In this document: in pieces, positions 46,421-53,900 of the stretch
Layout: each line of letters begins with the position of its first letter
How positions within the stretch are numbered: the first letter of the stretch is position 1
Source: an uncultured Chloroflexia bacterium
GTDB lineage: Bacteria; Chloroflexota; Anaerolineae; Anaerolineales; UBA4823
Direction of reading: 5' to 3'
DNA length: 64,000 nt
NCBI GenBank assembly: GCA_963793095.1
Contig: CAWBYY010000011.1
Span: 277,034 to 341,033, forward strand
Made by a program: the position numbers and the translations under genes
Notes under the pieces: model-generated
Told to the model about the DNA's origin: nothing
Databases searched by the model: none
Seen by the model: the letters and a program-made list of their open reading frames with translations, nothing else

Positions 46421-48574
46421 TCATTCCCCGTAAGTTTTTCTGTGCCAGTCGATCAACCAGGTCTGGACATCCAACGGCGTCTCACCATCTTTCGGATTGA
46501 TAAAGGTGTAAGTCCCATCCGGATTCATACTGCGCACCTTCCGGTTGGCGATAAAGTAAGCGTCCAGCACTTCGGAATGCAGGTAATGAATAAGGCGCGC
46601 ATCCTGGACCGGGAAGAGTACCTCAACCCGGCGGTTGATATTGCGCGGCATCAAGTCCGCGCTGCCCAGGTAAATTTGCGGCTCTCCGCCGTTGCGGAAA
46701 TAATAAATGCGGCTGTGCTCCAGAAAGCGGCCGACCACACTGGTCACCCGAATATTATCGCTAATCCCCCTGACTCCCGGTCTAAGGCAGCAGATGCCGC
46801 GTACGATCAGATCAATTTTTACTCCAGCCTGAGAGGCTGTATAAAGATTGCGGATGATGCGTGGATCCACCAGGGCGTTCATCTTGAAAATCAGGTGCCC
46901 TTCCTCTCCGTTTCTGGTGTGCAGGATCTCGCGTTCGATCAACCATTCCATCTTTTCACGCAGGTTTATCGGGGCGACCAGCAGTTTGCGGTATTCCTGC
47001 TTGGCAGAATAACCGGTGAGGTAGTTGAACAGGTCGGTCGCATCCGCGCCGATGTCCTCGTCACAGGTGAACATGCCAATGTCTTCATAAAGCTGGGCAG
47101 TGATGGCGTTGTAGTTGCCGGTCGCCAAGTGGACATAACGGCGGATATGCTCTCCTTCTTTGCGGATAACCAGGGCGATTTTTGAATGCGTTTTTAATCC
47201 CAGCAACCCGTAAATAACATGGACACCCTCTTTCTCCAGCATCCTGGCCCAGCCGATATTGCTCTCTTCGTCAAAGCGGGCTTTTAACTCGACCAGAACC
47301 GCGACCTGCTTGCCATGCTCGCGCGCTTCCATTAATGTTTTGACGACCGGCGAGTTGCTGCCAACCCGGTAAAGGGTCTGCTTGATCGCCAGCACATTGG
47401 GATCGCGGGAAGCGGTTTTCAGGTAGTCAACAACCGGTTGGAAGGAATGGTAGGGGTGGTGGACCAGGATATCTTCGCGGCGCATCGTCAAAAAAATATT
47501 ACTGTCATGAAGTTCGTGTCTCAAAAGGGGTTGGATTACCTGTTTTAATGGAGGATCCTTTAAATCGTACCGGTCTATTTTGTGCAGGATTATCAAGCCG
47601 CCCAGACCCAGATGGCCATTAAGATTGTAGATATCGTTGCGGTCGATGGCGAGGTTTTCAATCAGGATCTCGCGTACATGGGAGGGCATGGCGTCGTTAA
47701 ATGCAAGGCGCACCACTGAGCCAAATCGCCGCTGGCGGACGCTTTGCTCCATGGTCTCCAGTAAGTCGGAGGCTTCCAGTTCCTGGATAACCATATCCGC
47801 ATCGCGCGTGACCCGGAACGGGTGCGATTCAACGATCTCCATACCCGGAAAGAGTTTTTCCAGGTTTGCAGCGATCAGCTCTTCCAGCCAGATGAAGTAG
47901 TGGTTAAACGGCGTGGTGCCATTTTTTCTAACCGCTCCAGAGGATCTTTTTATGGGAATCAGGCGCGGCAGGCTGGTCGGCATTTTTATCCGGGCGAAAT
48001 GTTCCTGCCCGGATTCATCCCGGATCACAACCGCCAGGTTTAAACTGAGATTGGATATATGCGGAAATGGGTGACCCGGATCAAAGGCAAGAGGGGTCAG
48101 GACAGGAAAAATGACCTCCTCAAAATAAGTATCGACATTTTCCCTCTGGCGGCTGCTCAGCGCATCATAGTCCAGCAGGTGGATCCCGTTTTCATCGAGC
48201 TGCGGGATGAGTTTTTCCTGCAGACATACTCTGGCTTCAATCATCAAGTCCAGCGCAACCCTGCGGATTTCAGCCAGCTGTTGTGCTGGAGTCATCCCGT
48301 CAGCCGGGACGTCGATAACACCGGCCGCAATCTGCTTTTTTAACCCGGCCACCCGGACCATAAAGAATTCATCCAGGTTGGATCCCAGAATTGAAATGAA
48401 CTTCACTCTCTCCAGCAGAGAGTTGCTCTCATCCTGGGCTTCCTGCAGCACCCGGCGCTGGAATTCGAGCAGTCCCAGCTCGCGGTTCACATAAAGCTGG
48501 GGGTCCATCAGGTCTGGCAAGTCGCTGGTCTCAATTTGATCAACAGTTATTTCGCTCATGCGTGCTTCCAACAA
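46421..48574 (-). CDS. ppk: Polyphosphate kinase 1
   Basis: 717 aa with the PPK1 N/H/C1/C2 layout (NLDEFFMVR, THSKIALV). The start may be the ATG at 48559. Confidence 0.95.
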   Translation of the reverse strand: MLEARMSEITVDQIETSDLPDLMDPQLYVNRELGLLEFQRRVLQEAQDESNSLLERVKFISILGSNLDEFFMVRVAGLKKQIAAGVIDVPADGMTPAQQLAEIRRVALDLMIEARVCLQEKLIPQLDENGIHLLDYDALSSRQRENVDTYFEEVIFPVLTPLAFDPGHPFPHISNLSLNLAVVIRDESGQEHFARIKMPTSLPRLIPIKRSSGAVRKNGTTPFNHYFIWLEELIAANLEKLFPGMEIVESHPFRVTRDADMVIQELEASDLLETMEQSVRQRRFGSVVRLAFNDAMPSHVREILIENLAIDRNDIYNLNGHLGLGGLIILHKIDRYDLKDPPLKQVIQPLLRHELHDSNIFLTMRREDILVHHPYHSFQPVVDYLKTASRDPNVLAIKQTLYRVGSNSPVVKTLMEAREHGKQVAVLVELKARFDEESNIGWARMLEKEGVHVIYGLLGLKTHSKIALVIRKEGEHIRRYVHLATGNYNAITAQLYEDIGMFTCDEDIGADATDLFNYLTGYSAKQEYRKLLVAPINLREKMEWLIEREILHTRNGEEGHLIFKMNALVDPRIIRNLYTASQAGVKIDLIVRGICCLRPGVRGISDNIRVTSVVGRFLEHSRIYYFRNGGEPQIYLGSADLMPRNINRRVEVLFPVQDARLIHYLHSEVLDAYFIANRKVRSMNPDGTYTFINPKDGETPLDVQTWLIDWHRKTYGE

Positions 48575-48612
48575 GAACTTTCTCGATTGTCAAAGATAGG
48601 GAGAAATTTCTT

Positions 48613-49386
48613 TTACTTTTTCTCCTTCTTTTTCTTTTCAGCGCTTTTCAGGTTGCGTTTTTCTCTTTTGAACGGGTCGGTTTCGAGTTCAAGGATAAAT
48701 TTGTCGACGATGGTTCTCAGAATCTTTATGCGGGCATAATATTTTGAATCGCCCTCGACCACAGTCCAGGGCGCGGTGATCGTGCTGGTTTTAAGCAGCA
48801 TCTCATTGACCGCGGCTTCATACTGATCCCATTTTTCCCGGTTGCGCCAATCTTCATCGGTAAGCTTCCAGGCTTTAAGTTTGTCCACATTGCGGGCTTC
48901 AAACCGCCTCAGTTGTTCTTCCTTGCTGATTTGCAGCCAGAATTTAAACAGGATTGTCCCAAAGTCGACAAGCTGGCGTTCAAAATAGTTGATCTCGCGG
49001 TAGGCGCGTTTCCATTCCTTTTCGGTGCAGAAACCTTCGATTCTTTCGACCATCACCCGCCCGTACCAGCTGCGGTCAAATATGGCGATTTGACCGGTCT
49101 CCGGCAGCCGGCGCCAGAAACGCCACAGGTAATGGCGCACAGCCGAATCGCCTTTTGGAGCCGCAATCGGGTATACCACAAAACCACGCGGGTCAATTTT
49201 CTCCGTAATCCTGCGGATCGCGCCGCCCTTACCGGCCGCATCCCATCCTTCGAACACGATTATCACCGGACGCTCCTGGACATATACCTGGTAAGCCAGT
49301 TCGTGCAGGGCGACCTGATACTTGATCAGTGAGGTTTTATATTCTTCATGCTCCAGAGCTGGCGAGAGGTCGATTGTTTGCAGCAT
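48613..49386 (-). CDS. Polyphosphate kinase 2 family protein with a Lys-rich C-terminal tail
   Basis: FEGWDAAGKGG P-loop, DRSWYGRV. Tail KREKRNLKSAEKKKKEKK. Confidence 0.9.
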   Translation of the reverse strand: MLQTIDLSPALEHEEYKTSLIKYQVALHELAYQVYVQERPVIIVFEGWDAAGKGGAIRRITEKIDPRGFVVYPIAAPKGDSAVRHYLWRFWRRLPETGQIAIFDRSWYGRVMVERIEGFCTEKEWKRAYREINYFERQLVDFGTILFKFWLQISKEEQLRRFEARNVDKLKAWKLTDEDWRNREKWDQYEAAVNEMLLKTSTITAPWTVVEGDSKYYARIKILRTIVDKFILELETDPFKREKRNLKSAEKKKKEKK

Positions 49387-49387
49387 T

Positions 49388-50209
49388 TTATTCTCCGGAT
49401 GTCACTTCAGCTTGCTCTTCTTCCACCCTCCATTCTGGCTGGGAAGCATGTTCTTCGGAAACCGGCGTGGTTTTTGGCGTTAGTTCTAAGGGTTCGGATT
49501 CCAATCCGAGAGCAGGTTCGAGGGCGTTTATCACTGTTTTATAAATTTTGACCCAGGTATGGCGGCGATCGGTCGCCTCCACGATAGTCCAGGGGCCCCA
49601 TTCAGTTTCGGTTCTCTCAAAAGCCTCTTCGTATGCCAGGGTCCACTCGTCATAATTGCGGTGGTGCTCCCAGTCCTCGGCTGTGACATGCCAGGCGGTC
49701 AGGGGGTCTTTGGTCAATTTTTTGAAACGGCGTTTCTGTTCCTCCCTGCTGATGTGCAGGAAAAATTTGATGATCAGGTACCCGTCGTCGGCCAGCGTGC
49801 GTTCGAAGTCAACGATATCCCGGTAAGCCCGGCGCCATTCCCGTTCCGGTATGAGGTTCTCAACCCTTTCAACCAGAACACGCCCGTACCACGAGCGGTC
49901 GAAAATCACCCATTCACCCAGCCTGGGTATTTTCAACCAGAAACGCCATAACCAGGGCCTTTTTTTCTCATACGTGCGGGCAGCCCGGATGGGATAGAGT
50001 TTGTAGCCGCGCGGGTCGAGATGCTGGGTCAGTTTCTGGATGGAAGTCCCTTTCCCGGCGGCATCCCATCCTTCAAACAGGATAATCACCGGTATATTCG
50101 CGTCCCAGGACAATTTCTGGATCGTATAAAGGCGGTTGGCAAGCGTTGGCATGATTTGTTTGTAGGTCGCCTTCTCGATCTTCTGGTTCAGATCAATTTT
50201 GTCCAGCAT
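49388..50209 (-). CDS. Polyphosphate kinase 2 family protein
   Basis: FEGWDAAGKGT P-loop, DRSWYGRV. 1-nt spacer to the next PPK2 gene. Confidence 0.9.
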   Translation of the reverse strand: MLDKIDLNQKIEKATYKQIMPTLANRLYTIQKLSWDANIPVIILFEGWDAAGKGTSIQKLTQHLDPRGYKLYPIRAARTYEKKRPWLWRFWLKIPRLGEWVIFDRSWYGRVLVERVENLIPEREWRRAYRDIVDFERTLADDGYLIIKFFLHISREEQKRRFKKLTKDPLTAWHVTAEDWEHHRNYDEWTLAYEEAFERTETEWGPWTIVEATDRRHTWVKIYKTVINALEPALGLESEPLELTPKTTPVSEEHASQPEWRVEEEQAEVTSGE

Positions 50210-50456: not shown

Positions 50457-51368
50457 CTACTGGATTTCGATGCCCCTTTCAAGCGGGTCCATTAATGCAA
50501 TCAATCCAATCGCCCCGATGTCCGCAAAGAGCAGCGGGGCCAGGAAAGGGGCGCCCCGGATGAAACGTTCTCCGACAATAACCCCGCTGGCGGTCAGGTT
50601 TTCAGCGATATGCAGTCCCAGGCCGGTGACGCCTACTGCAATCATCGCCAGCATGGCTGCTGTGAAGGTAAAAATGTCGCTGCGGGAGGGGTTTTCAAGG
50701 GCGCCGAGAACAACCGCCACTACAGTGGCGAATACGCCAATTCCGGTTGGGACCCACAGCCAGGGATTTAAAAAATCTGTCCGGGCGTGATCGAGTACGC
50801 TGCTGATGACTGTCGCCAGGGATGCCATCCCGGTGATGAAGAAATATGCCCTGGTTTTACTGTATGGAAGGGAGATAATCCTGCCGCCGAGCAGAGCCAG
50901 GATCCCGCTGTCGGGCGGATTCTCAACCCAGGCTGCGCTGAGGCCCAGCAAGCCCACCAGCGAGAAGGTAAGCGGGCCGAGGACCGGCGGCGCCCAGACA
51001 AGCAGCGGCACAGAAAACTGGCTGCCAGGATCCGCATAGGGCAGGATCGCCCGGACTGTGTGAAAATAAGCTCCCAGCAGGCCGACCAGGATGCTGGCAA
51101 GGAATACAGTGGTGGCGATCACAGTCGCCAGCGGGCGGTTGCGCACAGCCAGCAGACCTGCCAGCAGCAGCAAAATTCCGGCGGTTGGCCCGAAAATTAT
51201 CGGAATCCATTCATATGGAACGATGCTTCCGCTGATCAGGTGGGCGATGAGTGTTTCCAGCCCGAGCAGCAGTAAATTGAGGGCAGCCATTAACAGCATC
51301 ATCTGGTCGCGGGTGAGCGGTATTTTTCTCTCTCTCACCCGGGGGAACATAACTGCGAGCGGGTACAT
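50457..51368 (-). CDS. Polytopic membrane protein of unknown function, partner of the octaheme cytochrome
   Basis: ATG at 51368 is 2 nt after the cytochrome stop (MYPLAVMF..). Roughly 8 predicted hydrophobic helices. The track ORF extends to 51530 only because of overlap. Confidence 0.6.
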   Translation of the reverse strand: MYPLAVMFPRVRERKIPLTRDQMMLLMAALNLLLLGLETLIAHLISGSIVPYEWIPIIFGPTAGILLLLAGLLAVRNRPLATVIATTVFLASILVGLLGAYFHTVRAILPYADPGSQFSVPLLVWAPPVLGPLTFSLVGLLGLSAAWVENPPDSGILALLGGRIISLPYSKTRAYFFITGMASLATVISSVLDHARTDFLNPWLWVPTGIGVFATVVAVVLGALENPSRSDIFTFTAAMLAMIAVGVTGLGLHIAENLTASGVIVGERFIRGAPFLAPLLFADIGAIGLIALMDPLERGIEIQ

Positions 51369-51370
51369 AA

Positions 51371-52654
51371 TTAATTCGAAGGGCCTTCTTCGGCTTCCTG
51401 TAATTTTTCTTCGACCATCTCGCGCAGCTCTGCGAGGTCGTGCAGGACCTCGTATGCGCCGTGCCACTGCGAATAATCCGGGCCCTGCATCCAGACCCCG
51501 AATTTGGCGGTGCGCCCCCAGTGGTGCCACAGGTTGAAGAAGGTGAAGTCTATCGTCTCATCGAAGGGCTCGGAAGTCAGCAGCCCCTGGTCCCTCAGAG
51601 GCTGGATGATATCCTGGCTCTCCACCACCCATTCGTTAACCCTTTCAGTGGCTTTATCAGCTGCCGGGTAGAAGTCATCAATAAAGGTTTGTGAGTGGCA
51701 TTCCAGGCATACTCCCTGCATGCGGACTTTGTTGTCCTGCCAGGCTGGTCTGCGGGTGCTTACCGGAGCAAAAAGGTACCAGGTCAGCCGGTCGCCGATG
51801 TCGTGAGATGTACCGCTTGTGCCAAATCCGCTCATATGGCAGATTGCGCAGGTGGGGGCCGGGAAGTCCTCGACAGTCAGAGTGCCAGGTTCCGCCTCCC
51901 AGTTCCAGGTATATCCCATGGTATTGTAGGCAATTCCGTGAGGGGACTCGATATATATCTCGTACTGCGGGTGGTCGGGGCCGATATGGCAGTAGTTGCA
52001 GGTTTCCGGCTTTCGGGCCTGTTCCAGGCTGAATTCATGCCTGAGATGGCACATCTGGCACTGGCCGGGAGAACCATCCACCCCGGGTTTACCTATATCG
52101 TGGCAGGCCTCGCAGGTGAAGCGGGTCATCGCTTCGCCTTCAAGCCTGTGAATGTCGTTGCGGGATTTATCCGGCGAATAGCTTCCTTCCGGTATGGCTT
52201 CGTACATTGCAAGCAGCTCCGGGGACAGGTCTTCGGAGCCTGCATAGGCTACATAAGCCGGTATGCTGTGACGGCTCTGGTGGAATTGGGCCACTTCAGC
52301 AGCGTGGCATTTCTGGCACATTGTGGTTGTGGGCGAATTCAGGACGTGGGTGCCCTCGTGTTCAATCGCGCCGGGGTAGTCCGCCGCCACTTCGTGGCAG
52401 TCCTGGCAGGCAACCTCGGCAGCCGCCATTGAACTGTGGCTGTACTGTTCGATAATGCCCGGTGAGGTTTTGCGGTGGCAGATAACGCATTCGTTATCGC
52501 TGTTGGCGAGCACATCAATTTCTTCAGTCTCGACCGGCGTGCCTGCCCTCCCGATCGCCATGATGATCAAAGCTGCTCCCAGCACAACAATCACCGCAAC
52601 CAGTCCGATTATGAGCGCTTTTAAAAATCCTCTGCTGTCCGAACCTTCACTCAT
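51371..52654 (-). CDS. Octaheme c-type cytochrome, hydroxylamine-oxidoreductase (HAO)-family-like, N-terminal membrane anchor
   Basis: Eight CxxCH motifs (CVICH, CQDCH, CQKCH, CEACH, CQMCH, CNYCH, CAICH, CLECH), an N-terminal TM helix and an HAO-like C-terminal helical region (FFNLWHHWGRTAKFG). ATG at 52654 after GGAG. Confidence 0.8.
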   Translation of the reverse strand: MSEGSDSRGFLKALIIGLVAVIVVLGAALIIMAIGRAGTPVETEEIDVLANSDNECVICHRKTSPGIIEQYSHSSMAAAEVACQDCHEVAADYPGAIEHEGTHVLNSPTTTMCQKCHAAEVAQFHQSRHSIPAYVAYAGSEDLSPELLAMYEAIPEGSYSPDKSRNDIHRLEGEAMTRFTCEACHDIGKPGVDGSPGQCQMCHLRHEFSLEQARKPETCNYCHIGPDHPQYEIYIESPHGIAYNTMGYTWNWEAEPGTLTVEDFPAPTCAICHMSGFGTSGTSHDIGDRLTWYLFAPVSTRRPAWQDNKVRMQGVCLECHSQTFIDDFYPAADKATERVNEWVVESQDIIQPLRDQGLLTSEPFDETIDFTFFNLWHHWGRTAKFGVWMQGPDYSQWHGAYEVLHDLAELREMVEEKLQEAEEGPSN

Positions 52655-52721
52655 TTTGGATTCTCCAAACAATTGTATTAATGTTTTCCCAGTATTCCCC
52701 TAATATTATTTTAATGCTTCT

Positions 52722-52740
52722 GATTTGTAAAGTACAAATC
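52722..52740. promoter_or_regulatory. Perfect 8-3-8 palindrome, candidate operator upstream of the cytochrome operon
   Basis: GATTTGTA-AAG-TACAAATC, about 70-85 nt upstream of the ATG at 52654. Confidence 0.45.
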
Positions 52741-52783: not shown

Positions 52784-53900
52784 CTATTTAACCACCAAAT
52801 CGTGGTCAAACCCGGTCAGAAGAAGCGGGTCGCCGTCTGTGACAACCAGGATATCCTCGATGCGGATCCCGAATTTTCCCGGAAGGTAAACCCCCGGTTC
52901 AACCGAAAAGACCATACCCGGGGCAAGAACTGTCTGGCTGGTTGAAGTCACCCAGGGCGGTTCGTGGCCCTCCAGGCCAAGCCCGTGCCCTGTCCGGTGG
53001 ACAAAATACTGGTCAAGGCGGTTTCTCCTGAGGGAGGGCGCGGGCTGCCCGGTCGACATTTGAGGCGGTGCTTCCGGACAGCGCGGCCGCTCTCCCGGCC
53101 ACATTGGCATCAAGTACAGCCTCGTAGGCCTCTGAAACTTCCTGCGGGGGGTCACCCAGGCAGACCATCCTGGTGATGTCGGACTTATATCCCCTGAGCG
53201 TCGCCCCGATGTCAAGGATGACCGGTTCGCCTGTTTTCAACACCCGGTCGCTGGTCTGGTGGTGAGGGAAAGCGCCGTTGGGCCCGGACGCAACCAGGCT
53301 GAAATCAACTTTTTCGGCGCCATTATCGTAGAAAAAATTAGCAATCTGGTTAGCCACCTGCCTTTCAGTGGCTCCGGGAACACATGCATCTATACCTGCC
53401 TGCATGGCTCTGTCTGCCAGCGCCGCCGAACGGGCCAGTATATCGATTTCATCCTGGGATTTGATAATTCTAAGGCTGGAAATGATCTCCCCGGCCGGCA
53501 GCGATCTTACCGGCAGGATTTTACTCTGGACCAGCAGCAGGTGCTCAGCCCGCATGCTGTTATCCGCCGCCAGGACTATACTGGATGGGAGCGCCAGCTG
53601 GCTGAGGGCGGCATCGATCGCATCCAGGGGACCGTGTTCATCCGCCCACCGTCTAACAACCAGGCCGGTATGGGCTTCAACCTGGTCGGCATTGAGGTCA
53701 GGCACAACCAAACTGAAACCATTCTGGCTTACCAGCAGCGCGCAGAAACGCTCGTCCATCATCGGGGCAAAACCGGTCAAGTAGCGCATGTTGGCGGTCG
53801 GGGCGATAAGGGTTAGATCGACCTCGGACCGGATCATTATTTCCTGCAGGCGTACAATCCGTTCTTGAAAGACAGCGGTAACCTTCATGGTAATGTTCAC
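52784..53900 (-). CDS. M24-family Xaa-Pro peptidase, one frame break
   Basis: ORF 53013..53900 (N-terminal and start of the pita-bread fold) plus ORF 52784..53215 (HRTGHGLGLEGHEPP, VEPGVY, IRIED). The break is near the G3 runs at 53032-53038. Confidence 0.8.

Follow-up and report, generated by a model that had tools for sequence, protein, structure and literature searches.

The 64,000-nt stretch analysed here, referred to at its full length as the window (positions 277,034 to 341,033 of contig CAWBYY010000011.1, assembly GCA_963793095.1), comes from an uncultured Chloroflexia bacterium that GTDB places in the Anaerolineae. Its minus strand carries a two-gene operon for an octahaem cytochrome c of the hydroxylamine oxidoreductase (HAO) family and an eight-helix membrane protein, which we call the partner or, with its relatives in mind, the four-His protein, after its four invariant histidines. 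An earlier, sequence-only reading of the region had described a membrane-anchored 427-aa protein with eight CxxCH motifs followed after 2 nt by a 303-aa protein with roughly eight hydrophobic helices, and both descriptions hold: translation gives exactly eight CxxCH and a 23-residue hydrophobic anchor for the first, and an AlphaFold2 model shows eight helices for the second. The cytochrome frame runs from an ATG at 52654 to a stop at 51371 (minus strand, 427 aa), and this start is consistent with the closest orthologs, whose N-termini begin MSE. The partner ATG lies two bases (TT) past the TAA stop of the haoA-like gene and opens a frame of 303 aa (51368..50457, minus strand).

51371..52654, minus strand: haoA-like gene, 427-aa octahaem cytochrome c (translation, eight CxxCH, PF13447)
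50457..51368, minus strand: partner gene, 303-aa eight-helix membrane protein with a duplicated set of four transmembrane (TM) helices, 2x4 (translation, AlphaFold2 model)

The octahaem cytochrome

The cytochrome matched the Pfam family PF13447 at 1.6e-31 (110 bits, cut-off 21.9), and when a profile of 67 orthologs was compared with the PDB, HAO-family chains led the ranking: Ignicoccus hospitalis IhOCC (4qo5, 1.2e-46), the HAO of Nitrosomonas europaea (NeHAO; 4fas, 2.8e-35) and then the anammox HOX, HAOr and HDH proteins. NrfA appeared in that profile search only at 6e-4 or weaker, over one haem pair. The AlphaFold2 model of the cytochrome, with a predicted local distance difference test score (pLDDT) of 80.6, gave seven significant Foldseek matches, all to the HAO family and with the cross-link-free 4qo5 and 6h5l first; NrfA, ONR and MccA were not significant in this search (E > 0.6). 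Nor does the protein fall into the ONR, OTR, MccA or NrfA families by profile (TIGR04315, 19 bits against a cut-off of 375), and it scored 78.5 bits against a cut-off of 900 for the NCBIfam equivalog of hydrazine_HDH (NF052343). The matches to PF13447 and, in the PDB, to IhOCC, to the reductive HAO of Kuenenia stuttgartiensis (KsHAOr, 6h5l) and to NeHAO bear out the HAO-family assignment of the sequence-only reading, and the place of the cytochrome within the family is judged from how the profile and fold matches rank.

52544..52636, minus strand: N-terminal signal-anchor helix of the cytochrome, residues ~7-37 (hydrophobic segment LKALIIGLVAVIVVLGAALIIMAIG; AlphaFold2 helix 7-37)
52100..52114, minus strand: fourth CxxCH, C181-H185, equivalent to the catalytic haem-4 motif C229-H233 of NeHAO (HMMER alignment to 4fas_A)
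51971..51976, minus strand: Asp227-His228, equivalent to the distal pair Asp267-His268 of NeHAO (HMMER alignment to 4fas_A)
51464..51490, minus strand: Met389...Trp397, the epsilon-Hao signature where oxidative HAOs have the cross-linking Tyr (invariant; alignment to 6h5l)

The hydrophobic N-terminal segment spans 23 residues (LKALIIGLVAVIVVLGAALIIMAIG), and the listed orthologs have a similar hydrophobic stretch. The C181-H185 motif and Asp227-His228 are invariant across the 67 orthologs, and the Asp-His pair is present in all the HAO variants compared within the Anaerolineae.

The sequence-only reading had suggested a check for the cross-linking tyrosine of oxidative HAOs. In its place we found a signature of the epsilon-Hao type: Met389 and Trp397 are invariant in the alignment of 67 orthologs, spaced exactly eight residues apart, and the signature recurs in all HAO variants compared within the Anaerolineae. 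In the passages of PMC8940962 that cite Haase 2017, the epsilon-Hao signature is given as a Trp that replaces the Tyr, with a Met eight residues earlier. Trp397 was aligned with the Trp of KsHAOr (6h5l), an enzyme without the cross-link. A C-terminal profile of the cytochrome matched only IhOCC and, weakly, KsHAOr, and did not reach Tyr467 of NeHAO; the call on the missing tyrosine therefore rests on the published Met-x7-Trp signature. Two tyrosines lie nearby, Tyr394 and Tyr401, of which Tyr401 aligned with a Tyr of IhOCC, a protein that to our knowledge has no Tyr-haem cross-link. Characterised HAO members that are free of the cross-link have no appreciable oxidative activity (PMC8042395). 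As predicted from its sequence, the cytochrome is without the Tyr cross-link that tunes HAO for oxidation and is not of the P460 type. Given Met389-x7-Trp397 and the matching Trp in KsHAOr, we file it as a probable HAO-family member of the reductive, non-cross-linked, epsilon-Hao-like type, rather than as an oxidative HAO or an HDH.

The membrane partner

Searched against all of Pfam-A and NCBIfam, the partner had no match at E<=1 other than a sub-threshold holin. It contains no CxxCH and does not match PF03264, in line with the sequence-only view that it is not of the NapC/NrfH type, and neither profile nor fold relates it to cytochrome b/b6 (PF00033) or to other known quinol dehydrogenase subunits. 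Its AlphaFold2 model, built with 68 sequences, has eight long helices, a pLDDT of 89.7 and a predicted template modelling score (pTM) of 0.88. A Foldseek search of this model against the PDB returned no match better than E 0.22 and no TM-score above 0.28, with chance-level matches to rhodopsins and G-protein-coupled receptors. Relatives are numerous, with more than 2,000 at the 90% clustering level and 305 clusters at 50% identity, and those with a name are nearly all called 'hypothetical'.

A search for conserved histidines, which had also been suggested, turned up four. H43, H103, H194 and H253 are 100% conserved in 93 sequences, down to ~27% identity, and are kept in partner paralogs at 25-29% identity. 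In the same 93 sequences G96, G99, P56, P128, P132, P274 and P278 are likewise 100% conserved, and E53 (95%), D193 (98%) and R268 (88%) are near-invariant.

51240..51242, minus strand: His43 codon, outer end of TM1 (invariant)
51060..51062, minus strand: His103 codon, TM3, in the motif G96xxG99xxxH103 (invariant)
50787..50789, minus strand: His194 codon, outer end of TM5, with Asp193 just before it (invariant)
50610..50612, minus strand: His253 codon, TM7, in the motif G246xxG249xxxH253 (invariant)

In the AlphaFold2 model helices 1, 3, 5 and 7 each have one of the four histidines at their C-terminal end or close to it. Both halves of the protein carry the same series of motifs, namely AH or DH, EWIP or LWVP, then one GxxGxxxH each (in TM3 and TM7) and one PxxxP each; in the four-His proteins a PxxAPL motif opens TM4 and TM8. 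This repeated series, together with a cross-half BLAST match of 9e-8 in the four-His family, points to an internal duplication of a four-helix unit. The Lys and Arg residues of the loops add up to 9.06 on the N-terminal side versus 3.84 on the His side (68 sequences). Because of this bias the predicted topology is N-in and C-in, which would give an outer-face cluster of the four histidines with Glu53, Asp193 and Arg268. Cytochrome c maturation is extracytoplasmic, and the cytochrome would therefore lie on the same outer face as the His cluster.

Homology of the partner to CtaA/Cox15 was considered and rejected: hhalign gave a probability of 0.5% against the genome's own CtaA, and there was neither a PF02628 nor a Foldseek match. 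The likeness is an architectural analogy only, of eight helices in two homologous bundles with four conserved histidines. The structure of Bacillus subtilis CtaA has four conserved histidines and two haem sites towards the outer face; the partner differs in that its histidines lie on odd-numbered helices.

We found no description of a four-His partner in the literature searched, and we propose that the four-His proteins, with their 2x4-TM architecture, may make up an undescribed superfamily. The sequence-only view that the partner is no obvious cytochrome b stands insofar as no known family matches it; however, the four invariant histidines, the GxxGxxxH motifs and the genomic contexts described below point to a new haem-b or metal protein.

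Conservation of the gene pair

In a set of 80 loci seeded by the partner, a haoA-like gene lies directly upstream in 74; four of the six others end at contig edges and two hold partner fragments. Since this set was seeded by the partner, we sampled 401 Anaerolineae genomes with each protein separately. HAO orthologs of at least 57% identity were present in 20 of these genomes and the partner in exactly the same 20, the genes being adjacent on one contig in 18 and split only by contig ends in two. The sequence-only reading had held that it would fail if the downstream gene were not conserved beside the cytochrome in other genomes, and this neighbour is kept in 20/20 genomes. A sample of 301 Chloroflexota genomes held one exception, in the 1.9-Mb Chloroflexota genome G123, where the HAO ortholog (locus L086) adjoins a rubrerythrin-like gene. 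Beyond this phylum, the pair occurs in three Desulfosporosinus isolates, in one Ignavibacteriaceae metagenome-assembled genome and on one 920-kb Bacteroidota contig. Desulfosporosinus genomes, that of D. acididurans among them, carry two co-diverged hao/four-His pairs. By these comparisons, the two-gene layout is a real conserved module, in which a known kind of enzyme is probably combined with a new kind of membrane subunit.

A gene for a CRP/FNR-family regulator stands beside the pair in 18 of the loci L002-L081 (L040, L067 and L077, for example), from both Anaerolineae and Desulfosporosinus. In the window, no such gene was found next to the pair.

HAO paralogs with other membrane neighbours

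Distant HAO paralogs (35-39% identity) without a four-His protein occur in 28 genomes of the class Anaerolineae, and we examined the contexts of eight such loci. All eight retain GPDH and the Met...Trp signature. A NapC/NirT tetrahaem gene (PF03264) lies directly upstream in four, L102-L104 among them, and a cytochrome b/b6-type gene (PF00033) in one (L106); one locus has a seven-haem cytochrome, and in two (L100 and L107) a CopD-like membrane domain and a cytochrome b5-like haem domain are fused ahead of the HAO domain. These fusions, of 738-743 aa with nine CxxCH and a CopD-like part of 4-5 helices, would be single-polypeptide membrane HAOs. The two genes of L106 (3782-5032 and 2583-3698) recall the anammox HAO-like gene in a bc-type operon. 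NapC-type and four-His solutions coexist in the Anaerolineae (L102-L104), and in this class, it would so appear, a membrane haem protein always fills the slot beside an HAO-type reductase, the four-His protein being one alternative.

Four-His paralogs beside other redox enzymes

A four-His paralog with 26-29% identity and all four histidines is encoded in 31 of the 301 Chloroflexota genomes, mostly Ktedonobacteria. In 11/11 loci (L087-L097) it is followed, in a tight operon, by a homolog of gluconate-2-dehydrogenase subunit 3 (PF13618) and then by a GMC flavoprotein. The paralogs of these loci are 300-390 aa long and keep the four histidines but not Glu53 and Asp193, and no open reading frame (ORF) of the 11 loci contains CxxCH. 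Classical enzymes of the gluconate-2-dehydrogenase type have as their third subunit a trihaem cytochrome c, with which they reduce ubiquinone. Ahead of the operon, some of the GMC loci encode either a fusion of a GlcD-like FAD oxidase with Fe-S/CCG domains or PoxB-like and enolase-superfamily proteins.

A further context is that of nitrous oxide reductase. A third paralog of Desulfosporosinus acididurans follows a membrane-anchored monohaem cytochrome c, and a metagenomic contig (L118, 7691-14299) encodes, in this order, a monohaem cytochrome c, a four-His protein, a Sec-type nosZ, nosD, nosF and nosY. In L118 the four-His frame continues through one extra hydrophobic helix into NosZ, the TGA of D. 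acididurans being GGA there. This in-frame join to NosZ, which must be outside, fits the predicted cytoplasmic C-terminus of the four-His domain. In D. acididurans (L114, 7031-7921) the TGA stop is accompanied by ~17 bases identical to the L118 nosZ start and then by unrelated sequence, as if nosZ might have been deleted after the four-His gene. The nos operon of Acididesulfobacillus acetoxydans, for its part, encodes a PetABC bc-type complex (PMC10949509).

In the HAO, NosZ and GMC systems alike, the four-His protein thus appears to stand in the place of its relatives' quinone-reactive haem module, and this shared place is our main argument for an electron-transfer role. We also considered whether the partner might be a haem lyase or maturation factor dedicated to the cytochrome, and rejected this role, since paralogs of the partner accompany copper and flavin enzymes.

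The host genome

Only one HAO-family gene is present in the host genome, which is assembled into 12 contigs (4.54 Mb) and is 90% complete. NrfA, NarG, NapA, NirK and Hcp gave no match above cut-off in this 90%-complete genome, and its PF03264 matches lie only on another contig, within larger ORFs. Given those five negatives, the cytochrome would be the only evident candidate in the genome for handling nitrite, NO or hydroxylamine, and such compounds would probably be taken up from the surroundings. Two other loci were noted. A 138-aa ORF (G000:C8:34120-34497) matches only the C-terminal third of cytochrome d1, and a molybdopterin oxidoreductase with an in-frame TGA (G000:C4:88608-90696) is likely to be a selenocysteine-containing, formate-dehydrogenase-type enzyme.

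Proposed role and alternatives

The data suggest, with a probability that we put at roughly 0.6, that the operon encodes a reductase of nitrogen oxyanions or oxides that is bound to the membrane and depends on quinol, the partner feeding it electrons from the quinone pool. A reductive, quinone-coupled module had been the guess of the sequence-only reading, and it is the interpretation that the sequence comparisons appear to support best. In our proposal, the catalytic epsilon-Hao-type subunit would be tethered to the outer side of the cytoplasmic membrane through its own N-terminal helix. The histidines of the partner would ligate one or two b-type haems, menaquinol would be oxidised at a site on its outer face with release of the protons outside, and electrons would pass from the partner to the haem chain of the cytochrome and on to the substrate, likely nitrite, hydroxylamine or NO. 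The partner would then take the part played in other HAO-family reductases by NapC/NrfH-type tetrahaem cytochromes or by cytochrome b. The comparisons themselves establish the family of the cytochrome, its missing Tyr signature, the strict pairing of the genes, the duplication and invariant histidines of the partner, its charge-bias topology and the paralog contexts; haem binding, quinol oxidation, the direction of electron flow and the substrate are what we infer in this scheme. That the four-His subunit is an electron-transfer protein of the quinone pool seems to us somewhat more probable than the contrary, and for its binding of haem b we see about an even chance. More broadly, and a little short of even odds, the four-His proteins, with the partner as founding member of the superfamily, may carry two side-by-side haems b at the outer face and act as interchangeable quinone-pool adaptors for HAO, clade II NosZ and GMC enzymes, replacing NapC/NrfH proteins, bc-type complexes and trihaem cytochromes c in bacteria with monoderm or atypical envelopes.

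Several observations weigh against this proposal. In the exceptional genome G123 the ortholog (L086, 4344-5717, 54% identity) stands without a partner and begins with an N-terminus of the lipoprotein type; the partner is therefore not indispensable for every member of the cytochrome family. The case for haem binding is made by a residue pattern and by context, and may be read otherwise: the confident model of the partner matches no solved haem protein, and by sequence the partner belongs to no cytochrome b family. In the model, moreover, all four histidines are at one face, unlike those of the classical transmembrane dihaem cytochromes b. This excludes a dihaem chain of that kind across the membrane and leaves two side-by-side haems, one haem or a non-haem metal site as possibilities. 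No Tat or Sec signal was recognised in the GMC/small-subunit pair beside the paralogs, and the GMC enzyme may dock at the cytoplasmic side of the membrane, remote from the His cluster, an arrangement that would suit an anchor role for the four-His protein as well as electron transfer. The fusion to NosZ comes from a single contig (L118), whose nosZ is frameshifted further downstream. Finally, substrate and product are not fixed by sequence, on which point we agree with the sequence-only reading.

Some of these observations would suit a partner that is a redox-inert scaffold or docking subunit, keeping the enzyme on the membrane or organising a supercomplex, with the electrons coming from another cytochrome c, soluble or membrane-bound, or a bc-type complex. 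It has no cofactor motif of a known family, the cytochrome is already self-anchored, one HAO ortholog (L086) does without the partner and the GMC pair appears to be cytoplasmic, far from the His cluster. It would, however, be unusual for a scaffold to conserve four histidines, two GxxGxxxH motifs, Glu53, Asp193 and Arg268 across very divergent sequences; furthermore, proven electron-transfer proteins stand at the same genomic place in other HAO paralogs, and no gene for NapC/NrfH or another c-type cytochrome lies near the pair in the window. We therefore regard a scaffold as unlikely. The four histidines, with Glu53 and Asp193, could instead bind non-haem Fe, Cu or Zn and have a catalytic or metal-handling role of their own, such as a second N-oxide step or copper delivery. 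The candidate ligands are all at one face and near helix ends, with two His and one carboxylate per half, and one of the contexts is that of a copper enzyme, NosZ. Yet Glu53 and Asp193 are lost in the GMC-type paralogs that retain the four histidines, and the neighbouring enzymes carry haem c, copper or FAD, which makes a cofactor-specific delivery unlikely. Where a cytochrome b helix packs onto a porphyrin, it typically has glycines one turn and two turns ahead of the His, and by analogy the glycines of the partner's GxxGxxxH motifs may point to porphyrin packing. A non-haem metal site is distinctly unlikely on this balance.

The remaining alternatives concern the cytochrome. An oxidative direction, in which hydroxylamine or hydrazine is oxidised and the partner passes electrons to the quinone pool, as in the hydroxylamine-ubiquinone redox module (HURM) of ammonia oxidisers, is hinted at by membership of the same family as HAO and HDH and by the retained catalytic Asp-His pair. 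But it seems highly improbable to us, with a Trp in place of the cross-linking Tyr, a hydrazine_HDH score so far below its cut-off (78.5 vs 900) and no appreciable oxidative activity in the characterised members that are free of the cross-link (PMC8042395). A non-nitrogen acceptor, such as sulfur oxyanions or extracellular Fe(III) or humics, would be in keeping with the in vitro promiscuity of multihaem reductases (PMC9250108), with the presence of the pair in sulfate reducers and with a genome in which no nitrate reductase was found to supply nitrite. However, the HAO-type distal pocket is retained, CRP/FNR-type regulators flank the pair in 18 loci, a partner paralog lies in a nos cluster and the ONR, OTR and MccA families gave no match, so that such an acceptor appears very unlikely.

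Comparison with known systems

The closest known arrangement is the epsilon-Hao, or reverse-HURM, module of Campylobacterota (Haase et al. 2017, as represented in PMC8940962 and PMC10949509). In those accounts it shares with the cytochrome described here the absence of the Tyr cross-link, the Trp/Met signature and the Asp-His pocket. It likewise consists of an octahaem enzyme encoded beside a membrane protein that is presumed to link it to quinones, and reductive activity on nitrite or hydroxylamine is expected. The epsilon-Hao module, however, has a NapC/NrfH-type tetrahaem partner, whereas the partner here is an eight-helix four-His protein without a haem c motif; moreover, the cytochrome described here is self-anchored and the hosts are Chloroflexota, Bacillota and Bacteroidota. 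Thus the module would work like NrfHA and epsilon-Hao, but its membrane subunit falls into none of the known quinol dehydrogenase families for which it was searched.

Among solved structures, IhOCC of Ignicoccus hospitalis (4QO5) is the best PDB match (Foldseek 8e-12, with an alignment that extends through the C-terminal helices) and is, like our cytochrome, a membrane-associated octahaem protein of the HAO family. It differs in being archaeal, only ~20% identical, next to another neighbour and with a Phe at the position of Trp397. The reductive HAO of Kuenenia stuttgartiensis (Kustc0458/0457, 6H5L; PMC8042395) is a cross-link-free nitrite reducer with a dedicated haem partner; there the role falls to a soluble dihaem cytochrome c or to a bc-type complex and not to a four-His protein. 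Coupling of an HAO to cytochrome b is found in the anammox Rieske/cytochrome b operon and likewise in the Anaerolineae locus L106. As for gluconate 2-dehydrogenase, fructose dehydrogenase and FAD-glucose dehydrogenase, the loci of the partner paralogs share with them the small (PF13618) and large GMC subunits; they differ from these membrane FAD dehydrogenases in having a four-His protein in place of the trihaem cytochrome c and a small subunit without a Tat motif.

What is new here is, for the cytochrome and its partner, the unbiased 20/20 co-occurrence, the Met-x7-Trp test, the topology from charge bias and the negative result for a palindrome (below), and, for the family at large, the contrast with NapC-, cytochrome-b- and fusion-type HAO paralogs and the superfamily link to NosZ and GMC dehydrogenases. 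Some anoxic communities count HAO-like genes free of the Tyr cross-link among their most abundant N-cycle genes (PMC8940962). If our proposal is correct, it would explain respiratory reduction of nitrite or hydroxylamine in many Anaerolineae, some Bacteroidota and Desulfosporosinus. It would also define a new class of respiratory quinone-reactive modules, by which thousands of 'hypothetical' membrane proteins could be annotated. Cultured species of Desulfosporosinus and Ktedonobacteria carry four-His members, which makes the question directly testable.

The palindrome and the promoter region

The sequence-only reading had also drawn attention to a perfect palindrome upstream of the operon as a likely site for a dimeric regulator. 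It is present at the positions given:

52722..52740, no strand: perfect 8-3-8 palindrome GATTTGTA-AAG-TACAAATC, overlapping a -35 hexamer (read directly; chance level, not conserved)
52703..52731, minus strand: promoter-like TTTACA-17-TAATAT, 49 nt upstream of the start codon (consensus match only)

Its perfect symmetry, its intergenic position and its overlap with the promoter-like -35 hexamer would suit an operator at which a dimeric repressor masks the -35 box, but the odds appear to be well against such a role. The window contains 11 palindromes whose arms measure 8 bp or more and whose loops do not exceed 6, and 20 sequences simulated with a first-order Markov model averaged 7.6 (range 3-14), so that the count is at chance level. 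At the closest ortholog locus (L003, with an HAO 91% identical and the same upstream gene) the right arm is present and the left arm is absent; both promoter-like hexamers are at the same place there, and the right arm coincides with the -35 hexamer. No second exact copy was found in the 4.5-Mb genome, and of three copies with one mismatch, the one with ORFs listed (L084) lies inside an ORF. Moreover, the odd spacing is unlike that of sites for CRP/FNR, the type of regulator encoded beside the pair elsewhere. The genome scan, the ortholog comparison and the chance estimate were thus all negative for a regulon motif, and that idea was dropped; an operator is likewise unsupported, and we read the palindrome as a putative promoter with a fortuitous symmetric flank.

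No dyad shared upstream of hao emerged across 65 loci other than scattered CRP-like sites: TGTGAC-N4-GTCACA dyads occur at a few of the 65, at the same frequency as in a coding control, and the perfect dyad is absent from the window. No Rfam family was found in the operon or its leader.

Neighbouring genes

The operon is followed immediately downstream by PPK1 and a tandem pair of PPK2 genes (window 46421-50209, minus strand). This neighbourhood is common only to the closest relatives (L002-L004, L025, L059 and L074) and is a matter of synteny rather than of functional linkage. Just upstream (window 52784-53900, minus strand) is a gene for an M24-type peptidase in two overlapping frames, 53900..53013 and 53215..52784, a split that suggests a frameshift, a decayed gene (pseudogene) or a mistake in the assembly.

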